Source: an uncultured Bacteroidia bacterium
GTDB taxonomy: Bacteria; Bacteroidota; Bacteroidia; Bacteroidales; Prolixibacteraceae
Length of the DNA: 64,000 bases
NCBI GenBank assembly: GCA_903904515.1
Contig: CAIVCR010000060.1
Coordinates: 30,008 to 94,007 of the forward strand
Direction: 5' to 3'
Shown: positions 1-48,195 of the stretch, one piece after another
Layout: every line of letters starts with the position of its first letter
Numbering within the stretch: position 1 is the first letter of the stretch
Notes under the pieces: generated by a model
The model's database searches: none
The model's input: only the letters and a program-made list of their open reading frames with translations
Told to the model about the DNA's origin: nothing
Made by a program: the position numbers and the translations under genes

Positions 1-60
1 GCAAATTTTCAAAATTCTTTTGGATTTTGGGCTTAAATTGTTCTAAATTTAATTGCATAT
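1..60. repeat. Edge of a degenerate ATT-N5 octamer-periodic tract
   Basis: Words attttcaa/aattcttt/...aaattgtt/ctaaattt resemble the octamer tracts at 16880, 20165, 20741 and 47097. Truncated by the window edge. Confidence 0.3.
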
Positions 61-14044: not shown

Positions 14045-16870
14045 ATGGACGAAGAAGATAAAATTGTAGTTAGAGGGGCGCGGGAGCACAACCTTAAAAA
14101 TATAAATGTTGAAATACCGCGTAATCAGCTCACCGTGATTACCGGTTTGAGTGGAAGTGGAAAATCTTCGCTTGCTTTTGATACGATCTATGCCGAGGGG
14201 CAGCGCCGCTATATCGAAACCTTTTCGGCCTATGCGCGCTCTTTTCTGGGTAATATGGAGCGCCCGGATGTGGACGAAATCACCGGTTTAAGTCCGGTAA
14301 TCTCCATTGAGCAAAAAACCACCAATAAAAATCCGAGGTCTACCGTTGGCACTGTTACGGAGATCTATGATTTTCTCCGCCTCCTCTTTGCCCGCGCCGG
14401 TGAAGCCTATTCCTACAATACGGGTGAGAAGATGGTCAAGTATACCGATGAGCAGATCATTAACCTGATCATCGAAAAGTTTCATGGTAAACGCACCATG
14501 ATCCTGGCACCCGTCGTCCGCGGACGGAAAGGGCATTATCGCGAACTCTTTGAGCAGATCCGCAAGAAGGGGTTTCTTTATGCCCGCGTTGACGGAGAGA
14601 TCTGTGAAATGACTCATGGCTATAAAGTTGACCGGTATAAAAATCACCATATCGAGATGGTAATCGATAAGCTGGTGGTCGATGAAGGTGACCGGAAACG
14701 GCTGCGCGATTCGGTAGATATTGCCATGAAACATGGGCAGGGAATCATCATGATCCTTGATGCAGAAACCAAAGATACGCGATTCTTCTCACGTCACCTG
14801 ATGTGTCCGACGACAGGAATTTCTTACAATGATCCTGCGCCCCACAGCTTTTCATTTAATTCACCTCAGGGGGCATGCCATAAATGTAATGGTCTTGGCG
14901 AGATTACCGAAATCGATCAGGACAAACTGATTCCTGACCTGACGCTCTCTATTGCCAAGGGGGGAATTGCCCCGCTGGGTCCCCATAAAAACACCATGAT
15001 TTTCTGGCAGATTGAAGCGTTAGCTGAGAAGTATGGCTTTACCCTTAAAACACCGGTAGGTGAGATCTCAGAAGAGGCTCTTAACGCAATTTTATTTGGG
15101 ACCGGAGAGCGGATTCAGCTTAAAAACTCTCCGCTGGGAAGTTCAATCGATTATATGATGACCTACGAAGGGATCGTCAAGTATATCCTCAACCAAAAAG
15201 GCGATAACCTCTCCAAAACAGCACAAAAATGGGCCGATCAATTTCATAAAAGCATGACTTGCCCTGAGTGTAAGGGACAACGGTTACAGCTTGAGCCCCT
15301 GCATTTTAAAATTGACGGGAAAAATATTTCTGAACTTGCTCAACTGGATATCTGTGAGTTATCCGATTTCTTTGAAAAAATTGAGGAACGTCTTAGCTCC
15401 CGTCAGTTGCAGATTGCCACAGAGGTGGTTAAAGAGCTCCGAACACGCCTGCGCTTCCTGATTGATGTGGGGCTGACCTATCTCTCACTCGATCGCCCGG
15501 CAGGTACCCTTTCAGGAGGAGAATCGCAAAGGATCAGGCTCGCAACCCAGATCGGATCACAATTGGTAAATGTTCTCTATATCCTTGATGAACCTAGTAT
15601 CGGCCTGCATCACCGCGACAATCTCAGGCTGATCAATTCATTACAGCAATTGCGTGATACCGGTAACTCGGTGGTCGTGGTGGAGCATGACCGCGATATG
15701 ATGCTGCAAGCTGATTACCTGATTGATATGGGCCCGATGGCGGGGATCCATGGTGGTGAAATAGTTGCAGCCGGCATCCCGTCAGAGGTGCTTAAACACG
15801 ATACCTTAACCTCTCAATACCTGACGGGAAAGAAGAAAATTGAGGTTCCGTCCACATATCGTCCTGGAAATGGGAAGTCATTAATTATCAGGGGTGCTTC
15901 AGGAAACAATCTGAAGAATATCGATGTTGAATTTCCGCTTGGAAAGCTGATCTGCGTTACCGGTGTTTCGGGAAGCGGTAAATCGACACTGATCAATGAA
16001 ACGCTGCAACCAATTCTAAGCCAGTATTTTTATAAATCATTACTCGATCCGTTGGCCTATTCATCCATTGAAGGGATTGATCTGATCGATAAAGTTGTTC
16101 AGGTCGACCAATCTCCAATCGGCAGAACACCCCGCTCGAATCCGGTCACCTATACCGGTGTTTTTACCGATATCCGTACGCTGTTCACCCTTCTCCCCGA
16201 AGCAAAGATACGGGGCTATAAACCCGGACGATTTTCATTCAACGTGAAGGGTGGCCGTTGTGAAGAGTGCGAAGGGGCAGGGATGAAAGTTATCGAAATG
16301 AATTTCCTTCCCGATGTGTATGTCCATTGCGATAAATGTAACGGGAAAAGGTATAACCGCGAAACACTTGAGGTCCGGTTTAAGGGAAAATCGATCAGCG
16401 ATGTTCTTGATATGACAATTAATCAGGGAGTTGAATTTTTTGAAAGCATCCCGGCCATCGTTCACCGGTTACGGACACTACAGGAGGTGGGACTTGGCTA
16501 TATCACCCTGGGACAGTCGTCAACAACCCTGTCGGGGGGAGAATCACAACGGGTAAAGCTTGCAACGGAGTTAAGCAAACGGGATACCGGAATGACCCTT
16601 TACATTCTGGATGAACCGACCACGGGACTCCATTTTGAAGATATCAGGGTATTGCTCGAAGTACTCAATAAATTGGTCGACAAAGGAAATACAGTGATCG
16701 TCATTGAACACAATATGGAGGTGATCAAAGTGGCTGATCATATCATCGACATCGGTCCTGAAGGTGGAAAAGACGGCGGCAGGTTATTATGCAGCGGGTC
16801 TCCCAAGGAGATCATCAAACTAAATAAATCCTATACCGCTAAATACCTTATGGAGGAGTTGGGGAGATAA
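14045..16870 (+). CDS. uvrA: Excinuclease ABC subunit A
   Basis: Two ABC modules (GLSGSGKSSLAF, GVSGSGKSTL), zinc-finger CxxC pairs and LSGGE signatures. 941 aa. Confidence 0.97.
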   Translation: MDEEDKIVVRGAREHNLKNINVEIPRNQLTVITGLSGSGKSSLAFDTIYAEGQRRYIETFSAYARSFLGNMERPDVDEITGLSPVISIEQKTTNKNPRSTVGTVTEIYDFLRLLFARAGEAYSYNTGEKMVKYTDEQIINLIIEKFHGKRTMILAPVVRGRKGHYRELFEQIRKKGFLYARVDGEICEMTHGYKVDRYKNHHIEMVIDKLVVDEGDRKRLRDSVDIAMKHGQGIIMILDAETKDTRFFSRHLMCPTTGISYNDPAPHSFSFNSPQGACHKCNGLGEITEIDQDKLIPDLTLSIAKGGIAPLGPHKNTMIFWQIEALAEKYGFTLKTPVGEISEEALNAILFGTGERIQLKNSPLGSSIDYMMTYEGIVKYILNQKGDNLSKTAQKWADQFHKSMTCPECKGQRLQLEPLHFKIDGKNISELAQLDICELSDFFEKIEERLSSRQLQIATEVVKELRTRLRFLIDVGLTYLSLDRPAGTLSGGESQRIRLATQIGSQLVNVLYILDEPSIGLHHRDNLRLINSLQQLRDTGNSVVVVEHDRDMMLQADYLIDMGPMAGIHGGEIVAAGIPSEVLKHDTLTSQYLTGKKKIEVPSTYRPGNGKSLIIRGASGNNLKNIDVEFPLGKLICVTGVSGSGKSTLINETLQPILSQYFYKSLLDPLAYSSIEGIDLIDKVVQVDQSPIGRTPRSNPVTYTGVFTDIRTLFTLLPEAKIRGYKPGRFSFNVKGGRCEECEGAGMKVIEMNFLPDVYVHCDKCNGKRYNRETLEVRFKGKSISDVLDMTINQGVEFFESIPAIVHRLRTLQEVGLGYITLGQSSTTLSGGESQRVKLATELSKRDTGMTLYILDEPTTGLHFEDIRVLLEVLNKLVDKGNTVIVIEHNMEVIKVADHIIDIGPEGGKDGGRLLCSGSPKEIIKLNKSYTAKYLMEELGR

Positions 16871-16879
16871 TTATTTAAT

Positions 16880-17007
16880 GTGCTAATATGCTAATGTGCT
16901 AATATGCTAATATGCTAATGTGCTAATTTGGAAATTCGGTAATTTGAAGATTTGAGAATGAGAGAATAAAAAAATTTGAAAATTTGAAGATGAGATAATT
17001 TGGAAAT
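16880..17007. repeat. Degenerate octamer (N5-AAT) tandem array, about 16 units
   Basis: gtgctaat/atgctaat x6, then ttggaaat/tcggtaat/ttgaagat/ttgagaat/gagagaat/aaaaaaat/ttgaaaat/ttgaagat/gagataat/ttggaaat in one 8-bp phase. Starts 10 nt after the uvrA stop. Confidence 0.85.
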
Positions 17008-17013
17008 TCTTAA

Positions 17014-17041
17014 ACTTTGCGACTTGGCGTCTTTGCGTGAT
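17014..17041. repeat. TTTGCG-word half element
   Basis: ACTTTGCGACTTGGCGTCTTTGCGTGAT is nearly identical to 28349-28376. Confidence 0.6.
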
Positions 17042-17291
17042 TTTTTTGTTATCGCACCCAAAGTGGCATAGTCTCAATGAGGTAAAATACGATATCCTAT
17101 CTTTTTTAATAAATTGGCATATTTGTAAAGTCCGGGCCCGACTTTGAGTCGGACTCGGACTATCACTAATAAAGTTAATTTTAATCACCAAAATCCTTAA
17201 TCAATTATTAACTTTGGTGTTGCATTCTCCGTGTTGATTGAATAGTTCCCAAAATCCGCGGATAACCATTTAATTTTTAAGCATTCTACTT

Positions 17292-18941
17292 ATGCAAATC
17301 AGGCTAATCCTATCAATATCCTTTTTGTTGCTCGGGCTGGCCACCCTTGCCCAGACCAGCGCGAATAGTTATTATTGGATTGCACTCAGAAATAAGTCTG
17401 GTACGCCCTATGTAATTAATCATCCTGAGAAATTTTTATCCCAAAGGGCGATCGACCGCAGGATCAGGCAGGGGATTCCGGTTGACCAGACAGATTTGCC
17501 TGTCTCACCGGCATACCTCGACACGCTGATTGACCATGGCGTAACGGTTGTACATAGCTCTAAATGGTTAAATGGCGTGACAGTAAGTACACCCGATACT
17601 TCGTTGATTAAGCAAATTGCAAAACTTCCGTTTGTCGTTTCAGTTCAGCTTACAAAACCGGCACTACCCAAAAAGTCAACCAGAATCAAATTCAAGGATG
17701 AGGAAGTGATCAATGCATTTAATCCGCTGAACTATGGAGTAGCACTCACCCAATTAACCCAATTAAACGGGCAATATCTGCATAGCCAGGGTTTTCGCGG
17801 TAAGGGAATTCAGGTTGCAATACTCGATGCCGGATTCTGGCATGCGAATGTAATCCCGGCACTCGATAGCCTTCGTAATTCAGGCAGGATTATGGGTACC
17901 CACGATTTTGTCGATCCCACCTCGGATATTTACACGCAACATACCCATGGGACGAGTGTCCTTTCGTGTATGGGTGGGAATCTTCCTAAAACCCTTATTG
18001 GAACGGCTCCCGATGCTTCTTATTATCTTTTCCGGACAGAAGATGAACCTACTGAATATATGATCGAAGAGGACAATTGGGTTGCAGCTGCTGAATTAGC
18101 CGATAGTCTGGGTGTCGATTTGATCAATTCATCACTTGGGTATTATCTATTCGATGATCCGCTGATGGATCACTCCTATTCCGATATGAATGGAAATAAA
18201 ACCCGGGTCACTCAGGGAGCCAACATGGCATTTCAAAAAGGGATACTGGTTTTTACAAGCGCCGGCAATGAGGGCGATAAAGTCTGGAGACATATCATAG
18301 CCCCTTCAGACGGCGAAAATGTGATTGGGGTAGCGGCTGTCGATAAGCTCGGGATACGCGCCTCATTTAGCTCTGTAGGTCCTGCCTGGGGAGGGGCCAT
18401 AAAACCCAATGTAGCCGCAATGGGTTCTTCAACATTCCTGATTACCAGCGCCAGTGTTCCGGGTTATTCAAGCGGGACATCCTTTTCATCACCCGTGCTG
18501 GCCGGAATGGGAGCATGCCTGCTTCAGGCGAATCCCTATTCAAGTGTAAAACTGGTAAAAAAAGCGATTGAACAAAGTGCAAGTATCTATAACAGTCCCG
18601 ACTCCTTATTAGGATATGGAATACCCGATTTCGGAAAGGCTGATAAATACCTGAAGTTATATACTACCATTCCGGTAAGCACTCTCAAAACAGCGTGGGA
18701 AGTCTACCCCAATCCGTTCACTGATATGCTAACCATCAGAAACCGCGATCTGCTCTCAGCAGCTACTTGCCAAATAAGCATTTGCAACGTTAAAGGCGTT
18801 TGTCTTTGGCAGTCCAACTTTCCTGTTTCTGAAACAATAGAGTTAAAAAATCTTCCAAAATTTGCCAATGGATTGATGGTGCTGACCATTCGTTACGGAG
18901 GGAGAGAGGAAAATTTCAAGCTTATAAAAACAACCCGATAA
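17292..18941 (+). CDS. S8 (subtilisin-like) serine peptidase with T9SS C-terminal sorting domain
   Basis: Catalytic D (AILDAGF), H (HGTSV) and S (SGTSFSSP). C-terminal WEVYPNPFTDMLTI...LKNLPKFANGLMVLTI is typical of the Por/T9SS CTD. Confidence 0.85.
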   Translation: MQIRLILSISFLLLGLATLAQTSANSYYWIALRNKSGTPYVINHPEKFLSQRAIDRRIRQGIPVDQTDLPVSPAYLDTLIDHGVTVVHSSKWLNGVTVSTPDTSLIKQIAKLPFVVSVQLTKPALPKKSTRIKFKDEEVINAFNPLNYGVALTQLTQLNGQYLHSQGFRGKGIQVAILDAGFWHANVIPALDSLRNSGRIMGTHDFVDPTSDIYTQHTHGTSVLSCMGGNLPKTLIGTAPDASYYLFRTEDEPTEYMIEEDNWVAAAELADSLGVDLINSSLGYYLFDDPLMDHSYSDMNGNKTRVTQGANMAFQKGILVFTSAGNEGDKVWRHIIAPSDGENVIGVAAVDKLGIRASFSSVGPAWGGAIKPNVAAMGSSTFLITSASVPGYSSGTSFSSPVLAGMGACLLQANPYSSVKLVKKAIEQSASIYNSPDSLLGYGIPDFGKADKYLKLYTTIPVSTLKTAWEVYPNPFTDMLTIRNRDLLSAATCQISICNVKGVCLWQSNFPVSETIELKNLPKFANGLMVLTIRYGGREENFKLIKTTR

Positions 18942-18949
18942 TTGAAAAA

Positions 18950-20164
18950 ATGAAACAACTCATTTTCATCCTCGTGATTTTTCTGGCAACTGCTGCCTGC
19001 ACCAGTCAACCTGAGATCGCTCAGTGGCGTGGCCCTAACCGTGACGGATGCTATCCCGGAAGTGACTTACTTAAGGTATGGCCCGGCGAAGGACCAAAAT
19101 TGCTTTGGACAAACGATAAGATTGGTGATGGTTATGGTTCTCCCGTTGTGACACACGATGCGCTGTTTGTTACTGGAGCTGTCGATAGTACTGCTTATCT
19201 CTTTTCGTTTGATCTCAAGGGAAACTTAAACTGGAAAGTCCCCTATGGTCCCGAATGGACGAATGGATTTCCCGGTACACGATCTGCCCCAACGGTGGTC
19301 GATAATCTTGTATATGTTTCATCCGGGAAAGGGGAGGTTGCCTGTCTGGACCGGAAGGATGGAAGGAAGATTTGGTCGCTCAATCTTTTTAGTGATCTTC
19401 ATGGAAAGAATACAATATTTGGATATTCAGAGGGGTTGCTCGTTAAGGATCAGATGGTTTATTGCTCGCCTGGTGGCGCTGATACAAATATTGTGGCGTT
19501 AAACCGGTTTTCGGGTGACCTGATCTGGAAATGTAAGGGGGTAGGACAACTCTCTGCATTCTGTTCGCCAAAAATGCTTCATCACGGGAAACACAATATC
19601 CTTCTTACCTTCTCGGAACTCTCGATGCTTGGCATTGACGCTGATAACGGGAAACTGCTATTTACGCATAAACAGGATACGGCTGGGAATGTCCATTCCA
19701 ATGCACCAATCTATCAAAACGGATACCTTTGGTACGTAGCAGGCGATGGAAACCGTACAGTCAAACTTAAGCTTTCAGACGATGGGGAGCAAATTTCCGA
19801 GGTTTGGCGCTCCCTTCCGTTTGATAATATCATGGGAGGAGTGGTACAGGTTGATCATCATCTGATTGCCACCGGACACCGTAAACAGGAACTTATGTCC
19901 ATGGATATGGAGAGTGGCAAGGTTACACAGGAACTTAAAATTGGCAGGGGTTCAACCATTTATGCTGATGAAATGATTTATCTCTATGATGAAAAAGGGA
20001 ATGTCCATCTTGTGGATCCAAGTGGCGGGCTCTTAAAGGAGGTGAGTAAATTTAAGATTACCCAGGGTACAAAAGAACATTTCGCCCATCCGGTAATCAG
20101 CAACGGCACCCTTTTTATCAGGCACGGAAAGAGTTTAATGGCGTATAATATCCGGCAGGCGTAG
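18950..20164 (+). CDS. PQQ-like (BamB-type) beta-propeller repeat lipoprotein
   Basis: Lipobox (LATAAC). Repeated G.V.A.D...G...W blade pattern. Confidence 0.7.
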   Translation: MKQLIFILVIFLATAACTSQPEIAQWRGPNRDGCYPGSDLLKVWPGEGPKLLWTNDKIGDGYGSPVVTHDALFVTGAVDSTAYLFSFDLKGNLNWKVPYGPEWTNGFPGTRSAPTVVDNLVYVSSGKGEVACLDRKDGRKIWSLNLFSDLHGKNTIFGYSEGLLVKDQMVYCSPGGADTNIVALNRFSGDLIWKCKGVGQLSAFCSPKMLHHGKHNILLTFSELSMLGIDADNGKLLFTHKQDTAGNVHSNAPIYQNGYLWYVAGDGNRTVKLKLSDDGEQISEVWRSLPFDNIMGGVVQVDHHLIATGHRKQELMSMDMESGKVTQELKIGRGSTIYADEMIYLYDEKGNVHLVDPSGGLLKEVSKFKITQGTKEHFAHPVISNGTLFIRHGKSLMAYNIRQA

Positions 20165-20252
20165 TAATGAGTTATGAGTTATAAGTGATGAGTGTGCCAC
20201 ATTTTCAAATTTTCAAATTGCCTTATTTTCAAATTGTCACATTATCAATCGA
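20165..20252. repeat. 7-8 bp periodic degenerate array filling a convergent intergenic gap
   Basis: atgagtt x4 (7-mers), then attttcaa/attttcaa/attgcctt/attttcaa/attgtcac/attatcaa. Spans exactly from stop 20164 to stop 20253. Confidence 0.8.
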
Positions 20253-20705
20253 CTACTTCATCCACTCAAATACGCGGTAATGCTCGCCGTTCATTCCGAG
20301 ACGTGCATATACCTCCATCGCTTTTTTATTCGATTCGTCGACATAAAGACGGATTCCGACCAATGAGTCGTTTGAAGCGACCAGCCTTTTGACATATGAA
20401 TAAAGTGCCGCATAGATCCCTCGTTGTCTGTAGGATGAATCGACATATACCGACTGGATCCAAAGTACTGTACCATTGCGCCAGTCGCTCCATTCATAGG
20501 TTGTGAGCAGTGATCCCACCACTTCGTTCTCTACAATTGCAACATAATACGCCCCAAGGGTGTCGTTAGTCAATACGGCACTTACCCCGTTCTGAACTGT
20601 AAAAAGGTCAAGATTATACTGTTCAGTTTCCAGTGCCATTGCGACCTGAAATCTGGCAATCGGATCGCGGTCGGAGTTTTCAGCTTTTCGGATATCAATT
20701 TGCAT
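20253..20705 (-). CDS. GNAT family N-acetyltransferase
   Basis: Acetyl-CoA motif VDSSYRQRGIYAALY. Start moved to MQIDIRKAENSD (20705), because the longer ORF runs into repeat DNA. Confidence 0.8.
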   Translation of the reverse strand: MQIDIRKAENSDRDPIARFQVAMALETEQYNLDLFTVQNGVSAVLTNDTLGAYYVAIVENEVVGSLLTTYEWSDWRNGTVLWIQSVYVDSSYRQRGIYAALYSYVKRLVASNDSLVGIRLYVDESNKKAMEVYARLGMNGEHYRVFEWMK

Positions 20706-20740
20706 CTTTCTGTTTTTTGTCAAAAATAATAAAAACGAAT

Positions 20741-20850
20741 TAGACAATTTGACAATATGATAATTTGACAATTTATTCTTGTCATAGATTATCACATTCC
20801 CTAATTGCCTAATTCCCTATTGCCTAAAAGCCTAATGCCTAACAGCCTAA
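20741..20850. repeat. Octamer-periodic degenerate array, about 14 units
   Basis: tagacaat/ttgacaat/atgataat/ttgacaat ... ttccctaa/ttgcctaa/ttccctat/tgcctaaa/agcctaat/gcctaaca. Abuts the stop at 20847. Confidence 0.8.
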
Positions 20851-22313
20851 AGACTCTCTCCGAAATCTTCGCGGAACTTCGCTACAAGTTTGTCAACCCA
20901 GTCGCCGATAGGTTTAAGTTTACCAACAAAGAAGCGAAGTACAGGTGGTTCTTCGATCCATTCAAGACCACCGATCAAATTACGGTTATCATAAAGCCAT
21001 TGAATACGGTCTTCGGCATATTTGATTTGCGACAAGGTGAACACCCTGCGTGGGAAGGCAAGCCTGAGTAATTCAACGTCTGCCAGGATGTCGTCACCAT
21101 TGGCATCGCGCACACTTGAAATGGTTCCACGCTCCATTCCTCTGATCCCTGAGGCAACATAGAGCGCAGCGGCAAGGGCTCCAGCAGGATACTGACCCTG
21201 TGGAACATGAGGGATAAACGCTTTGGCATCAAGGTGACATCCCAATCCTCCGGCCGGGGTAATTACCGGAATTCCCTTTGAATCCAGCGCATCAACGAGG
21301 TATTTAATGAAAGTTGGGGAATGACTGATCACATTGAAATCAAGGGTCTCCACCAAACCTACAGCCATCGCTTCGATCTCCCTGACACTCATCCCTCCGT
21401 AGGTAAGGAATCCTTCATAAAGTGGAACCCAGTCACGCATTTGCATGTAAACATCGTGGTTATTGGTGCAAATACCACCACCACGTGTACAACTAACCTT
21501 ACGTCCTGAAAAATAAGAGAAGTCGGTATAGCTCATCATCTCATGAAGAATATCCTTGATCGGTTTATTGGCATAACCCTCTTCACGGACTTTAATGAAA
21601 TAGAGGTTTTCGTTAATCAAACTGGTATCCATCAGCAAAAGAATCTTGTTTTCCTTGGCGATAGCTGATACCTCACGCAGATTTGCCATTGAAAATGGCT
21701 GACCACCAATGAGGTTCGTCCCTGCTTCAAAACGGATGTAAGCTACATTCTGAGCGCCCCATTTTGCGATTACCTTATTGAGTTTGCCAATATCCATATT
21801 CCCTTTGAACGGGAAATCACTCTTGATCTTGAGCGCCTCTTCAGTGTATATCTCTTCAACAATACCACCCATCATTTCGATATGAGCCTTTGTAGTGGTA
21901 AAATGATAATTCATCGGGATTACCTTCCCCGGTTTTACAAAAGTCTTGGAAATAATGTGCTCTGCCGCACGTCCCTGATGGACAGGGAGAAAATAGTTCT
22001 GATTAAAAACTTCATGGATGGCATTTTCGAGTTTGGTATAACTTGATGAGCCGGCATACGAATCGTCAGCCACGCTCATTGCTGCCACCTGATTGTCACT
22101 CATGGCATTAGTTCCCGAATCGGTAAGCATGTCCAGAAAAACATCCTTGTTTTGAAGCAGGAATGTGTTAAATCCTGCACCAAAGATTGACTCTTTGCGC
22201 TCTTCGATCGGTAAAAGGTTTAGCTTCTGAACTACCCGTACTTTGTGCATTTCAAGTGGCGTTGCATCACCGCTGTAAAACTTTACAGTCTTTAATTGTT
22301 CGAAATTCTCCAT
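20847..22313 (-). CDS. Beta-eliminating lyase family PLP enzyme (tryptophanase / tyrosine phenol-lyase-like)
   Basis: N-terminal FLDMLTDSGTNAMSDNQ, PLP-Lys region YFSGRKVSCTRGGGI, about 490 aa. Confidence 0.8.
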   Translation of the reverse strand: MENFEQLKTVKFYSGDATPLEMHKVRVVQKLNLLPIEERKESIFGAGFNTFLLQNKDVFLDMLTDSGTNAMSDNQVAAMSVADDSYAGSSSYTKLENAIHEVFNQNYFLPVHQGRAAEHIISKTFVKPGKVIPMNYHFTTTKAHIEMMGGIVEEIYTEEALKIKSDFPFKGNMDIGKLNKVIAKWGAQNVAYIRFEAGTNLIGGQPFSMANLREVSAIAKENKILLLMDTSLINENLYFIKVREEGYANKPIKDILHEMMSYTDFSYFSGRKVSCTRGGGICTNNHDVYMQMRDWVPLYEGFLTYGGMSVREIEAMAVGLVETLDFNVISHSPTFIKYLVDALDSKGIPVITPAGGLGCHLDAKAFIPHVPQGQYPAGALAAALYVASGIRGMERGTISSVRDANGDDILADVELLRLAFPRRVFTLSQIKYAEDRIQWLYDNRNLIGGLEWIEEPPVLRFFVGKLKPIGDWVDKLVAKFREDFGESL

Positions 22314-27419: not shown

Positions 27420-28184
27420 ATGTTTGTTGATACCCATTCCCATATCTATTCCGAAGAGTTCAGTTCCGACAGGGATGAAGTGATCGCGCGGGGATTAATG
27501 GCAGGGGTCAAGAAAATCATACTCCCCAATATCGACAGCTCCAGCATAAAACCTTTACTTGACCTTGCCAGTTCAAGGCCGGAACTTTTCATCCCTCTTT
27601 TAGGGTTGCATCCAACATCGGTGAAGGAAGATTTTCGCAAGGAACTGGAAATCATGGAATACTGGCTGAACAAAAGGAAGTTCACGGGAATCGGAGAAAT
27701 AGGGATTGACCTTTACTGGGATAAAACCTTTATCAATGAGCAAATAGAGGCTTTTCGCATTCAAATCGGATGGGCAAAAAAGGCGGGTATCCCTGTTGTA
27801 ATCCACCTGAGAGATTCTTTCGACGAGGTTATTGAGGTCATTGAACAAGAGAAAGACGAATCACTGAGGGGGGTCTTTCATAGTTTTGGAGGGACTGTTG
27901 AACAGGCAGCTCAAATTATTGATCTTGGATTTAAAATTGGTATCGGCGGTGTTGTTACCTTCAAGAATTCAGGGCTGGACAATGTTGTTCCTCAGATTAA
28001 CCTTCAACATATTATACTCGAAACCGATTCACCCTGGCTTGCACCTGTTCCCCACAGGGGTAAACGGAACGAATCGGCCTATATATCCATCGTTGCTGCT
28101 AAAGTGGCATCCTTGCACCAAATCTCTGTCGAAGAGGTGGGCCGGATTACCACCCAAAATGCCAAACAATTATTTGGGTTTTAG
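27420..28184 (+). CDS. tatD: TatD family metal-dependent hydrolase
   Basis: MFVDTHSHIY, GEIGIDLYW, VVIHLRDS, HSFGG, ETDSPWLAP. Confidence 0.9.
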   Translation: MFVDTHSHIYSEEFSSDRDEVIARGLMAGVKKIILPNIDSSSIKPLLDLASSRPELFIPLLGLHPTSVKEDFRKELEIMEYWLNKRKFTGIGEIGIDLYWDKTFINEQIEAFRIQIGWAKKAGIPVVIHLRDSFDEVIEVIEQEKDESLRGVFHSFGGTVEQAAQIIDLGFKIGIGGVVTFKNSGLDNVVPQINLQHIILETDSPWLAPVPHRGKRNESAYISIVAAKVASLHQISVEEVGRITTQNAKQLFGF

Positions 28185-28250
28185 CCGATTAATTCGAGAC
28201 GGTTTGGTACATTTGTAGCAACTTATTTTAATCTTAAAAGCAGGGGGCAG

Positions 28251-28306
28251 CTGGCTTCTGGCAACTGGCTTCTGGCAACTGGCGGCTTGCAGCTTGCGAT
28301 TGGCTC
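28251..28306. repeat. Degenerate 14-bp tandem repeat x4
   Basis: ctggcttctggcaa x2, then ctggcggcttgcag and cttgcgattggctc. Confidence 0.7.
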
Positions 28307-28348
28307 ATTTTTCGCAAAAAAAACCACGCTAAGGCGCTAATAAATAAA

Positions 28349-28376
28349 GCTTTGCGACTTTGCGTCTTTGCGTGAT
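28349..28376. repeat. TTTGCG-word half element
   Basis: GCTTTGCGACTTTGCGTCTTTGCGTGAT, sibling of 17014-17041. Confidence 0.6.
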
Positions 28377-47096: not shown

Positions 47097-47137
47097 AAAT
47101 TTTTAAATTAACACATTAGCACATTTGCAAATTTTCC
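47097..47137. repeat. ATT-N5 octamer tract
   Basis: attaacac/attagcac/atttgcaa/attttcct. ATTAGCAC is the reverse complement of the GTGCTAAT unit at 16880. Confidence 0.6.
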
Positions 47138-47187
47138 TCCCCATCTCCCCTTCGCTATTTGATCGCTTGCTGAGCGGTGCCGAAGCA

Positions 47188-48195
47188 TCACTCCTCCGGC
47201 GAATAGCCCGATTCATTAAGTATTTTCTGATAGTCATTGTCGGCCATTAGCTGTGTGAGGGTGATCTGAGGATTCTTTTTCATATATTTCTGCACGATCT
47301 GCCAGCCGATCCAGACTCCCGCTCTTCCGGGTGAATCGTTCGTAAAGCACGATGTAAAGGGAGCAGGATTTATAAACCGGATAATATTCATCCTGTCTGA
47401 ACTAAACAGCAGCTTGTGTTCAACGAGGTAGGTCCACATTCCCGGTTCATTCTTTTTACACCACTCTAATTTTTCAGGAAGAAAGCCGATTTTAAGCTCA
47501 TCGGGCTCTTCGGGAAACATCGCATCAAGGAAATAGAGCATCTTCCCCTGGTAAATCATCTGAGCAAGGAGGTTGTTGTTCGCCTCATCAAATTCGAATT
47601 CCGAGATCCCCCACGCATAAAGAACGTCCGTGGGAATTTTTTCAATGCGCATATTCTCCCTTTTGAAAGCTGGCAGCCCGAGTCGCTTATAAAAAGGGCA
47701 ATCAACGCCCAGGTAATTGTCGAGGCTGATCCCGATTGCCTCGGAAGTCATAACCACCGACTGGTTAAATCCCGAGATGATCGTAATGACCTCAGGGATC
47801 CGTTTAGCCGGGAAATAATAGTGGTAATGCCTGAATCCCCCCTCAAGTTTATTCTGAATATCGCTCAGATCATTAAACACGGAATCAATTTTCTGACGGG
47901 ATAATACCCTTATACTATCAGTGAGAAAAGCATTTAGATAAGTTGCATACTGCGGGTCGGAAGGATCGCCCAACGCGATAACATCCTTATTGTAAGCATC
48001 GAAGAACGATCCGTATGTTTTTTTAAGCCCAGGGATCATCGCCGGCAGATTAGTCGGTGTAACGTTGAAAATATCCTGATCCAGCCGCTTTATATTCAAA
48101 TGCATGTTGATGCCGGAAACGTTTACTTTTAATGGGTTTCTTTGACAACAGACAAGCAACAACAGGAAGGGGAGGAGACGGAAAACTTTATACAT
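47188..48195 (-). CDS. GldB-like gliding-motility lipoprotein
   Basis: Lipoprotein signal (LLLLVCC). The N-terminal I.RLDQDIF pattern and about 330 aa size fit my recollection of GldB. nadE is a neighbour, as in many Bacteroidota. Assignment not verified. Confidence 0.5.
   Translation of the reverse strand: MYKVFRLLPFLLLLVCCQRNPLKVNVSGINMHLNIKRLDQDIFNVTPTNLPAMIPGLKKTYGSFFDAYNKDVIALGDPSDPQYATYLNAFLTDSIRVLSRQKIDSVFNDLSDIQNKLEGGFRHYHYYFPAKRIPEVITIISGFNQSVVMTSEAIGISLDNYLGVDCPFYKRLGLPAFKRENMRIEKIPTDVLYAWGISEFEFDEANNNLLAQMIYQGKMLYFLDAMFPEEPDELKIGFLPEKLEWCKKNEPGMWTYLVEHKLLFSSDRMNIIRFINPAPFTSCFTNDSPGRAGVWIGWQIVQKYMKKNPQITLTQLMADNDYQKILNESGYSPEE

Follow-up and report, generated by a model that had tools for sequence, protein, structure and literature searches.

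Polar arrays of 7- and 8-nt tandem units at gene ends of an uncultured Prolixibacteraceae bacterium

Background

Heptamer-dominated tandem repeats have been known since 1990 from cyanobacteria and since 2007 from a genome survey. Here we describe arrays of 7- and 8-nt units that follow the uvrA gene and many other genes of an uncultured freshwater Bacteroidota, whose nearest UvrA relatives are Prolixibacteraceae metagenome-assembled genomes (MAGs) and Tangfeifania. The analysis concerns a stretch of 64,000 nt, in the following called the window, which is part of contig C60 of a draft genome (G000; 3.57 Mb in 130 contigs, 41.9% G+C) and in which a first-pass annotation had noted recurrent, phased tracts of ATT-N5 octamers placed right after stop codons. 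About 250 loci of the genome carry such arrays and follow four regularities: anchoring at stop codons, a G-rich strand that reads outward from the gene, avoidance of promoter boxes and frequent pairing into hairpins. The heptamer half of the arrays, their polarity, the inverted pairs and the previous description of the class in other phyla go beyond what the annotation had noted.

The arrays belong to the long simple sequence repeat (LSSR) class and, judged by their unit sequences, fall outside its named families. As far as the survey by Mrazek, Guo and Shah (2007) is summarised in PMC4679880, heptamers are the commonest among units of 5-11 nt in many bacteria; their source was suggested to be slippage of the polymerase, linked to the size of its footprint. 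The LSSR features given in that summary match the situation found here: short units (of period 7 or 8, in 3 to more than 10 copies) stand head to tail beyond chance expectation and mostly in intergenic DNA, and units whose length is not a multiple of three are excluded from genes. Differences lie in the octamers, which are as common here as heptamers, in the degeneracy of the arrays and in their common AAT-core vocabulary; moreover, the present lineage (Prolixibacteraceae, Bacteroidota) does not figure among the repeat-rich genomes that the summary names.

The match is closer still with the heptamers GGGAATC of Xanthomonas and GGGGA(C/T)T of Nostoc, ~90% of which are intergenic, with a mean distance of 28 nt from the upstream open reading frame (ORF) as compared with 160 nt from the downstream ORF, and which occupy the same gaps in related species with varying length and sequence (Rehm et al. 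2015, PMC4692102). Like these heptamers, the arrays described here are intergenic, lie nearer to the end of the upstream ORF than to the next ORF, are rare in divergent gaps, form some inverted pairs and possess one G-rich strand. The Xanthomonas and Nostoc genomes each have one dominant, G4-prone unit, whereas dozens of A/T-rich units without G runs are present here, and GGGAATC never occurs in tandem in this genome.

TAACTGA repeats occur in Beggiatoaceae, cyanobacteria and five Bacteroidetes, with a patchy distribution resembling that left by horizontal gene transfer; their arrays place stop codons in all three frames in one direction and overlap only the very end of ORFs (MacGregor 2015, PMC4679880). 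Other heptamer arrays were reported from spacers of Gramella, Aequorivita and Elizabethkingia (PMC4679880). TAACTGA is a single unit found mostly a few nt upstream of start codons, whereas most arrays of the present genome follow stop codons; the genome contains 495 single copies of TAACTGA and no tandem dimers of it.

The short tandemly repeated repetitive (STRR) heptamers of heterocystous cyanobacteria, to which PMC4692102 refers, were reportedly described by Mazel and colleagues in 1990. They resemble the arrays in that several heptamer families are dispersed as tandem repeats in the non-coding DNA of one genome, and differ in their units and in phylum, the present host being a member of the Prolixibacteraceae and not a heterocystous cyanobacterium. 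The heptamers CCCCAGT, TTGGTCA and CAACAGT form no tandem dimers in this genome. To our knowledge, octamers, stop-codon anchoring and a polarity rule have not been described for STRR.

REP, BIME and REPIN elements share with the arrays the dispersal behind genes, the formation of hairpins, the alternating orientation and the variation between strains. Each REP unit is a palindrome of 20-40 nt, whereas the units studied here are non-palindromic, strand-asymmetric 7-8-mers, and a hairpin requires two whole arrays that face each other, as is the case for 24% of the arrays. The annotation had rightly set the tracts apart from CRISPR arrays, as the units are contiguous and have no spacers. Phase-variable contingency repeats differ as well, since most of the present arrays follow stop codons and are poor in -7 boxes. 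Iteron-like arrays are defined by a constant unit and spacing that a cognate protein recognises; in the present arrays the spacing toggles between 7 and 8 nt and the units are highly diverse. A search for literature on octanucleotide or Bacteroidota-specific arrays yielded nothing beyond PMC4679880 and PMC4692102.

Results and discussion

Abundance and periodicity of the arrays

When the region from 16880 to 17007 behind uvrA is cut into octamers, 16 in-register units are obtained, of which 14 have AAT and two have GAT as their last triplet, and the 15 AAT triplets between 16872 and 17012 share a single phase modulo 8, as had been noted in the first-pass annotation. Arrays were identified with Tandem Repeats Finder (TRF) in the window and genome-wide, and simple longest-ORF calls, which cover 88.5% of the genome with coding sequence, served as the gene set. 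The genome-wide scan yielded 253 period-7 and 295 period-8 rows that were merged to 251 loci, including 35 that were scored as coding and 16 without a called gene on one side. Some of the coding scores refer to intergenic arrays that were swallowed by spurious ORFs, such as the uvrA array in the ORF 16907-17191 and the arrays at 20738-20850.

Arrays with at least four copies are represented by 102 cases of period 7 and 91 of period 8, as against 7 of period 9 and 11 of period 10. The frequency of identical bases in intergenic DNA amounts to 0.2955 at lag 7 and 0.3001 at lag 8 (baseline ~0.281), with harmonics at higher lags, whereas coding DNA displays only the period of three and no peak at lag 7 or lag 8. 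A chance origin of the arrays is thus excluded, and the genome-wide excess at lag 8 that the annotation had proposed to look for is accompanied by a second one at lag 7. Period 7 is as frequent as period 8 and several single arrays, for example that at 20796-20850, mix both. The octamers of the annotation are accordingly real, but the equally frequent heptamers had been overlooked: the array at 20163-20193 has period 7, and the presumed 14-mer array at 28251-28306 exists but consists of pairs of heptamers. Higher-order periods of 15, 16, 24 and 32 nt were additionally reported by TRF.

The genome contains more than 70 unit classes. The commonest units are AATGTGCT (18 arrays) and AAAATGC (17 arrays), further frequent ones being AACTGGC, AACCATT, AAAATTTG and AAGGAATG. 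The ATT-N5 rule reflects a genuine bias, as AAT, read on the G-rich strand, is present in 52% of the units as compared with 24% expected from composition. Independent metagenome assemblies contain the same arrays base for base, which excludes an assembly artefact; contig ends hold arrays at about four times the expected frequency.

Placement and strand polarity

With respect to the orientation of the flanking genes, 54 arrays were assigned to convergent, 133 to tandem and 13 to divergent gaps, whereas 28, 123 and 48 were expected from gap length (p = 1e-11; unit families of one genome are not independent observations, here and in the following tests). The nearest gene end is a stop codon for 141 arrays and a start codon for 59 (p = 2e-10). 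The bias toward 3' ends suspected in the annotation therefore holds overall, although the array at 20738-20774, which had been listed among tracts following a stop codon, is situated upstream of a gene start. Stop-proximal arrays lie at a median distance of 4 nt, and 54 of the 141 overlap the stop codon itself. Within tandem gaps the median distance is 18 nt to the stop codon and 81 nt to the next start codon, with 87 arrays nearer to the former and 46 nearer to the latter. Part of this abutment is explained by the units themselves, because a stop triplet in a repeated unit of 7 or 8 nt stops all three frames and ends any entering ORF at once; the same frame-closing argument was made for TAACTGA by MacGregor (PMC4679880). 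The preference for stop codons is also seen in 79 other Bacteroidales uvrA loci (26 vs 11).

The two strands of the arrays differ strongly in composition, with 31.5% G and 7.6% C on one of them. This G-rich strand points outward from the nearest gene end in 167 cases and inward in 53, and the outward excess is found for stop-proximal arrays, both unpaired (94:27) and paired with an inverted partner (30:7), as well as for unpaired (33:15) and paired (10:4) start-proximal ones. The background skew of intergenic DNA has the same sign, with values of merely +0.02 after stop codons and -0.08 before start codons. An outward G-rich strand means that arrays at 3' ends would yield C-poor RNA and those at 5' ends G-poor RNA. 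A stop triplet is contained in 75% of the units on the G-rich strand and in 44% on the other strand.

Within arrays, the density of the Bacteroidota -7 box TAnnTTTG is 0.1-0.2 per kb, as compared with 1.36 per kb in other intergenic DNA. An interpretation of the arrays as promoters was rejected on these grounds: the units resemble the -7 box, yet its perfect form is about tenfold depleted.

Inverted pairs, hairpins and terminators

A reverse-complement partner array within the same gap was identified for 57 of 233 arrays (24%), whereas about 4 would be expected from random gaps. Folding of whole gaps against shuffled sequences, carried out on a reduced sample of gaps, gave a median z of -3.7 for gaps with paired arrays (79% below -2), -1.4 for gaps with unpaired arrays and -0.9 for array-free gaps; single examples are a paired gap of the genome with z -4.1 and a viral one with z -4.25. 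As a stem made of tandem units can pair again after a slip by one unit, this property may explain why the stems tolerate growth. All arrays of the window are of the unpaired kind, and the 3' region of uvrA folds no better than its shuffles (z 0.05).

Hairpins followed by a T run were detected behind 15% of the genes without arrays and behind 11% of those with arrays. Where an array and a terminator-like site share a 3' flank, the array comes first in 14 cases and second in 3, and an array that precedes the terminator-like site would be transcribed. No terminator-like site was found in the array gaps of 16500-21500. The idea that the arrays are classical terminators was dropped, given the absence of excess structure at uvrA, the absence of such sites from the array gaps of the window and the similar frequencies genome-wide. 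Likewise, the 60 nt distal to stop-proximal arrays have a median folding energy of -6.8 kcal/mol as against -7.3 kcal/mol in controls, so that a general order of stop codon, array and hairpin was rejected. Five loci that bear arrays or hairpins had no Rfam match at E values up to 1.

Two dispersed hairpin elements were recognised beside the arrays. One consists of three copies of CTTTGCGN and is present 26 times in the genome, including positions 17015-17047 and 28318-28375 of the window; many copies face their own reverse complement across an A/T loop and are followed by a T run, which results in a terminator-like structure with a stem of ~24 bp. The other is a nested hairpin of ~55 nt with the arms TCCTGA/TCAGGA and GTTTAC/GTAAAC and without an Rfam match. 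Its sites include C110:14916-14972, C94:11190, C94:31370, C27:20599, C21:14311 and C60:8955, among others (loci L091-L095). A C-rich array begins exactly at the end of this element in 9 of the 13 copies; its side and its polarity never change.

Four copies of the 55-nt element are interspersed on the 5-kb contig C70 (L094:1-5145) between small minus-strand toxin-antitoxin cassettes, which include MazF/PemK, ParE, an AbiEii fragment and Unstab_antitox in a layout like that of an integron array. The best match to an integron integrase (TIGR02249) was obtained at C16:243-1061 (L096, L097), in two pieces within an open frame of 497 aa. The integron interpretation of contig C70 was discarded, as the two pieces score 112 and 99 bits, below the family cut-off of 265 bits, and attC core sites were not recognised.

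Turnover between strains and species

Among assemblies with identical neighbouring proteins, both blocks behind uvrA, the arrays at 20738-20774 and 20796-20850 and the gap at 28246 are unchanged, the last of these having the same length in three other assemblies, and a single substitution distinguishes the array at 20201-20248. In two assemblies (L081 and L082), the heptamer array at 20163 has gained or kept an extra 57 nt, and the stop codon there is TGA instead of TAG. In all, one of six arrays differs in length among 2-4 other assemblies, and five do not.

Between species the turnover is rapid. In the sister species L001 (~79% DNA identity), the sites behind uvrA and to either side of the acetyltransferase gene hold shorter arrays with the same unit words, and the GCTAATRT block of the uvrA array represents a species-level gain in front of an older array that is shared with L001 and L111. 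At the 3' site of uvrA in 11 congeners, six have no array and three have an unrelated unit: the array of L111 is short and of the same family, inverted arrays with an unrelated unit are present in L109 and L110, the array of L108 is rich in C, and uvrA of L106 runs straight into the next gene. The first 330 nt past uvrA of L109 and L110 are made up of two or three tandem modules of ~115 nt, each of which comprises a CTATTGTG-type array, a T run and a complementary CACATAGG-type array. In seven more distant genomes (L003, L004, L034, L046, L058, L077 and L079), unrelated 7- or 8-mer arrays are located right behind uvrA. The position therefore recurs while the sequence drifts or is replaced, a pattern that the annotation had proposed to look for in relatives, and none of the sites is indispensable. 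Among uvrA loci of Bacteroidales (~10 kb each), 34 of 80 hold at least one array, with periods 7 and 8 dominating, and the phenomenon spans the order including gut and rumen Prevotella.

Spread of unit words

Three consecutive copies of GCTAATNT occur 22 times in this genome. The GCTAATNT family was also detected in 4 of 8 genomes of another Prolixibacteraceae genus, with up to 169 hits, and was not found in 8 sampled congeners nor in 34 other genera sampled; a later search revealed look-alike arrays in three further congeners. The GCTAATNT arrays of the other genus again start on or just after stop codons and form inverted pairs in convergent gaps. One genome from another genus has GCTAATNT arrays four times within one region (G046:C1:311983-320200), at a spacing of ~2.7 kb, one copy following a gene for an ABC-transporter ATPase, and this spacing suggests tandem paralogous cassettes that each end in an array. 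Additionally, 16 viral contigs from IMG/VR bear the family, which there mostly forms both arms of an intergenic hairpin.

A fixed order of modules, namely a GAGAG-type unit followed by TAATGTGC and then by TAATTTGA or AAATGAGA, recurs at no fewer than five loci with unrelated flanks as well as at 47097-47160, and ectopic gene conversion between arrays would explain it. The masked flanks of array-bearing gaps have only other small repeats in common. A mobile element with conserved flanks was rejected for this reason.

Origin and possible roles of the arrays

We favour, with moderate confidence, the reading that the arrays are simple repeats driven by slippage and recombination and filtered by selection on orientation and promoter content. 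Slippage would be their generator, recombination their spreader and selection the filter. Arrays would arise and change, by one or more units at a time, through slipped-strand mispairing and unequal recombination; ectopic recombination or gene conversion between arrays would carry unit words from locus to locus, and horizontal transfer, phages included, would carry them from genome to genome. Arrays would persist where non-coding DNA tolerates them, mainly from the stop codon to the end of the transcription unit, and the surviving forms would be those that create no promoter and mostly let a C-poor, stop-codon-rich strand read out of the gene. About a quarter would have gained an inverted duplicate in their own gap, the two copies serving as arms of long hairpins that pair despite a slip by one unit, and the uvrA array would be an unpaired, unstructured example without a locus-specific role. 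The higher-order periods, the multi-unit indel between strains and the rapid turnover between species fit slippage and are compatible with the mutational process at gene 3' ends that the first-pass annotation had offered. Several observations weigh against this interpretation. The arrays are degenerate and mostly invariant between strains, so that present-day slippage must be slow. Pure slippage leaves the preference for exactly 7 and 8 nt unexplained, as well as the presence of the same octamer at more than 20 loci and in another genus. Finally, the strand asymmetry and its orientation to gene ends, far above the background skew, need selection or a directional mechanism, and the polarity is not significant in the 79 other Bacteroidales uvrA loci (20:14).

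The arrays could instead be functional polar cis-elements of transcription units that end or insulate transcription, the main alternative, which we consider unlikely. Read outward, an array would form an unstructured, C-poor and stop-rich 3' untranslated region; read inward, it would give a C-rich, G-poor untranslated RNA that loads Rho and halts read-in or antisense transcription, and inverted pairs would act as register-tolerant hairpins that end or stabilise transcripts from both sides. Such a role would account for the outward G-rich strand at stops (124:34) as well as at starts (43:19), for convergent gaps being the most enriched class, for the avoidance of promoter boxes and for the position of arrays before terminator-like sites, where they would be transcribed; canonical hairpins with a T run stand behind 15% of the genes only, so that other termination signals are needed, and paired arrays fold strongly and recur in the same architecture between genes on viral contigs. 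It is at odds with the lack of structure in unpaired arrays, with following hairpins that are no commoner than in controls, with terminator-like sites that are only slightly rarer in array gaps, with the absence of an array behind uvrA in most congeners and with a polarity that loses significance outside this genome; abundant units such as the complement of GCTAATGT furthermore lack, on reading their sequence, the YC dinucleotides preferred by E. coli Rho. An extended version, in which arrays would be gene-end-anchored polar signals and not passive products of slippage, with the C-poor strand invariably leading out of the gene and the C-rich strand into it, and would shield genes from read-in and antisense transcription (for example by loading the unusual Rho of Bacteroidota), paired ones would be register-tolerant bidirectional terminators and the words would be exchanged horizontally, partly by phages, appears improbable to us; if true, it would supply a main termination or insulation device of a phylum in which classical terminators are scarce. 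Function is directly testable, since laboratory models (Bacteroides thetaiotaomicron and Flavobacterium johnsoniae) and published 3'-end maps exist.

A dedicated mobile or templated mechanism that seeds unit words at hairpin elements or stop codons and spreads them horizontally would suit the patchy distribution of the GCTAATNT family and its presence on viral contigs, the recurrent module order amid unrelated flanks, and the arrays that start with constant polarity at the end of the 55-nt element. We nevertheless judge it very improbable, because the arrays have no conserved ends, target-site duplications were not observed, an associated gene is not known, the masked flanks have nothing but other small repeats in common and dozens of unrelated unit families coexist; ectopic gene conversion would give the same common vocabulary, and the IMG/VR contigs may be proviruses or host fragments. 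The tandem protein-binding array envisaged in the annotation, that is, a row of putative duplex-DNA sites for a nucleoid or regulatory protein, is the least probable of the explanations and found no support. The AAT core, the strict phase over 16 units behind uvrA and the retention of some arrays at their site between species with 79% identity speak for it, whereas unit length toggles between 7 and 8 nt within arrays, the unit classes are too diverse (more than 70), with entirely different sequences at different loci and in different genera, arrays at orthologous sites are lost or replaced by unrelated units, with most congeners having none behind uvrA, arrays stand behind genes rather than at promoters, and a strong strand polarity is not expected for duplex binding.

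Arrays of the window

The arrays of the window are compiled in Table 1. The tracts listed in the annotation at 16880, 20165, 20741, 47097 and 28251 were recovered, while the one at the window edge (1-60) proved weak, with ATT in five phases. Unit matches between loci likewise exist, but at shifted positions: ATTAGCAC is found at 47115 and not at 47113, and ATTTTCAA at 20201 and 5.

Table 1. Tandem arrays and related repeats of the window
Feature	Position	Strand	Evidence
Octamer array GCTAATRT, 6.5 copies, 90% matches	16876-16927	+	TRF
Degenerate octamer array (WAATTTGR / RAATGAGA types), 10.5 copies, 32-nt higher-order period	16925-17008	+	TRF
Three CTTTGCGN octamers, then a run of seven T; single arm of a separate dispersed hairpin element, partner arm missing	17015-17047	+	TRF, family scan
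Heptamer array AGTTATG, 4.4 copies; begins on the TAG stop of the PQQ-propeller gene 18950-20164	20163-20193	+	TRF
Octamer array of 6 copies, TTGAAAAT type when read on the minus strand	20201-20248	-	TRF
Octamer array, AAATTGTC on the minus strand, 4.6 copies	20738-20774	-	TRF, sequence reading
Mixed 7/8-nt array, TAGGCAAT / TAGGCAA on the minus strand, ~7 copies	20796-20850	-	TRF, sequence reading
Heptamer pair array GGCAACT GGCTTCT; 2.7 copies of the 14-nt higher-order unit, followed by decaying units	28246-28306	+	TRF (28246-28283)
Second copy of CTTTGCGN x3; partial complementary arm upstream (~28318-28335)	28350-28373	+	TRF, family scan
Composite array past the stop of the minus-strand gene 47188-48195	47097-47160	-	Sequence, phase test, gene context; TRF 47107-47125
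Claimed window-edge array; only the first two units fit, remainder unphased	1-60		Phase test; no TRF report

The first block behind uvrA starts 6-10 nt past the stop codon (16868-16870), is G-rich in the sense of uvrA, belongs to a family with 23 genomic sites and is identical in two further strain assemblies. The second block (16925-17008) keeps the phase of the first and has partial homology to the shorter arrays behind uvrA of L001 and L111. The convergent gap downstream of the propeller gene is filled by one array of each period, of which the octamer array (20201-20248) directly follows the stop codon of the minus-strand acetyltransferase gene (20253-20705) and can be aligned in part with the L001 array in the corresponding place. 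On the other side of this gene, the array at 20738-20774 lies 33-70 nt before the start codon and is closely followed by a TAnnTTTG box; its position is conserved and its sequence partly conserved in L001, and it is identical in four strain assemblies. In the adjacent mixed array (20796-20850), the first TAG doubles as stop codon (20847-20849) for the beta-eliminating lyase gene 20847-22313, and the unit family of this array recurs in the genome, for example at C10:10425. The heptamer pair array is located 61 nt past the stop codon of the TatD-like gene 27420-28184 and belongs to the AACTGGC family with 12 arrays genome-wide. Read on the minus strand, the composite array at 47097-47160 consists of a GGGAGATG-type block, AAATGTGC/TAATGTGT and TAATTTAA/AAATTTGT in this order, and a GC-rich hairpin repeat comes after it.

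The arrays are also of relevance for the annotation and assembly of Bacteroidota MAGs, as they give rise to spurious ORFs and inflated N-termini and are overrepresented at contig ends. The minus-strand ORF 16907-17191 (94 aa) is an example of the spurious frames that the first-pass annotation had ascribed to the tracts, and the arrays likewise lend the acetyltransferase gene a false N-terminal extension that starts at a GTG codon (20706-20795; ORF 20253-20795).

Two minor differences between genomes concern the surroundings of the arrays. In the spacer between uvrA and the protease gene, outside the octamer arrays, the six-base sequence TCGGAC (~17140-17160) is present twice in the window and in L083 and once in L082, an indel that distinguishes strains. 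The PQQ-like beta-propeller gene (18950-20164), which lies between the S8 protease and acetyltransferase genes, is absent from L001, where a small ORF followed by an octamer array takes its place (L001:8867-9105).

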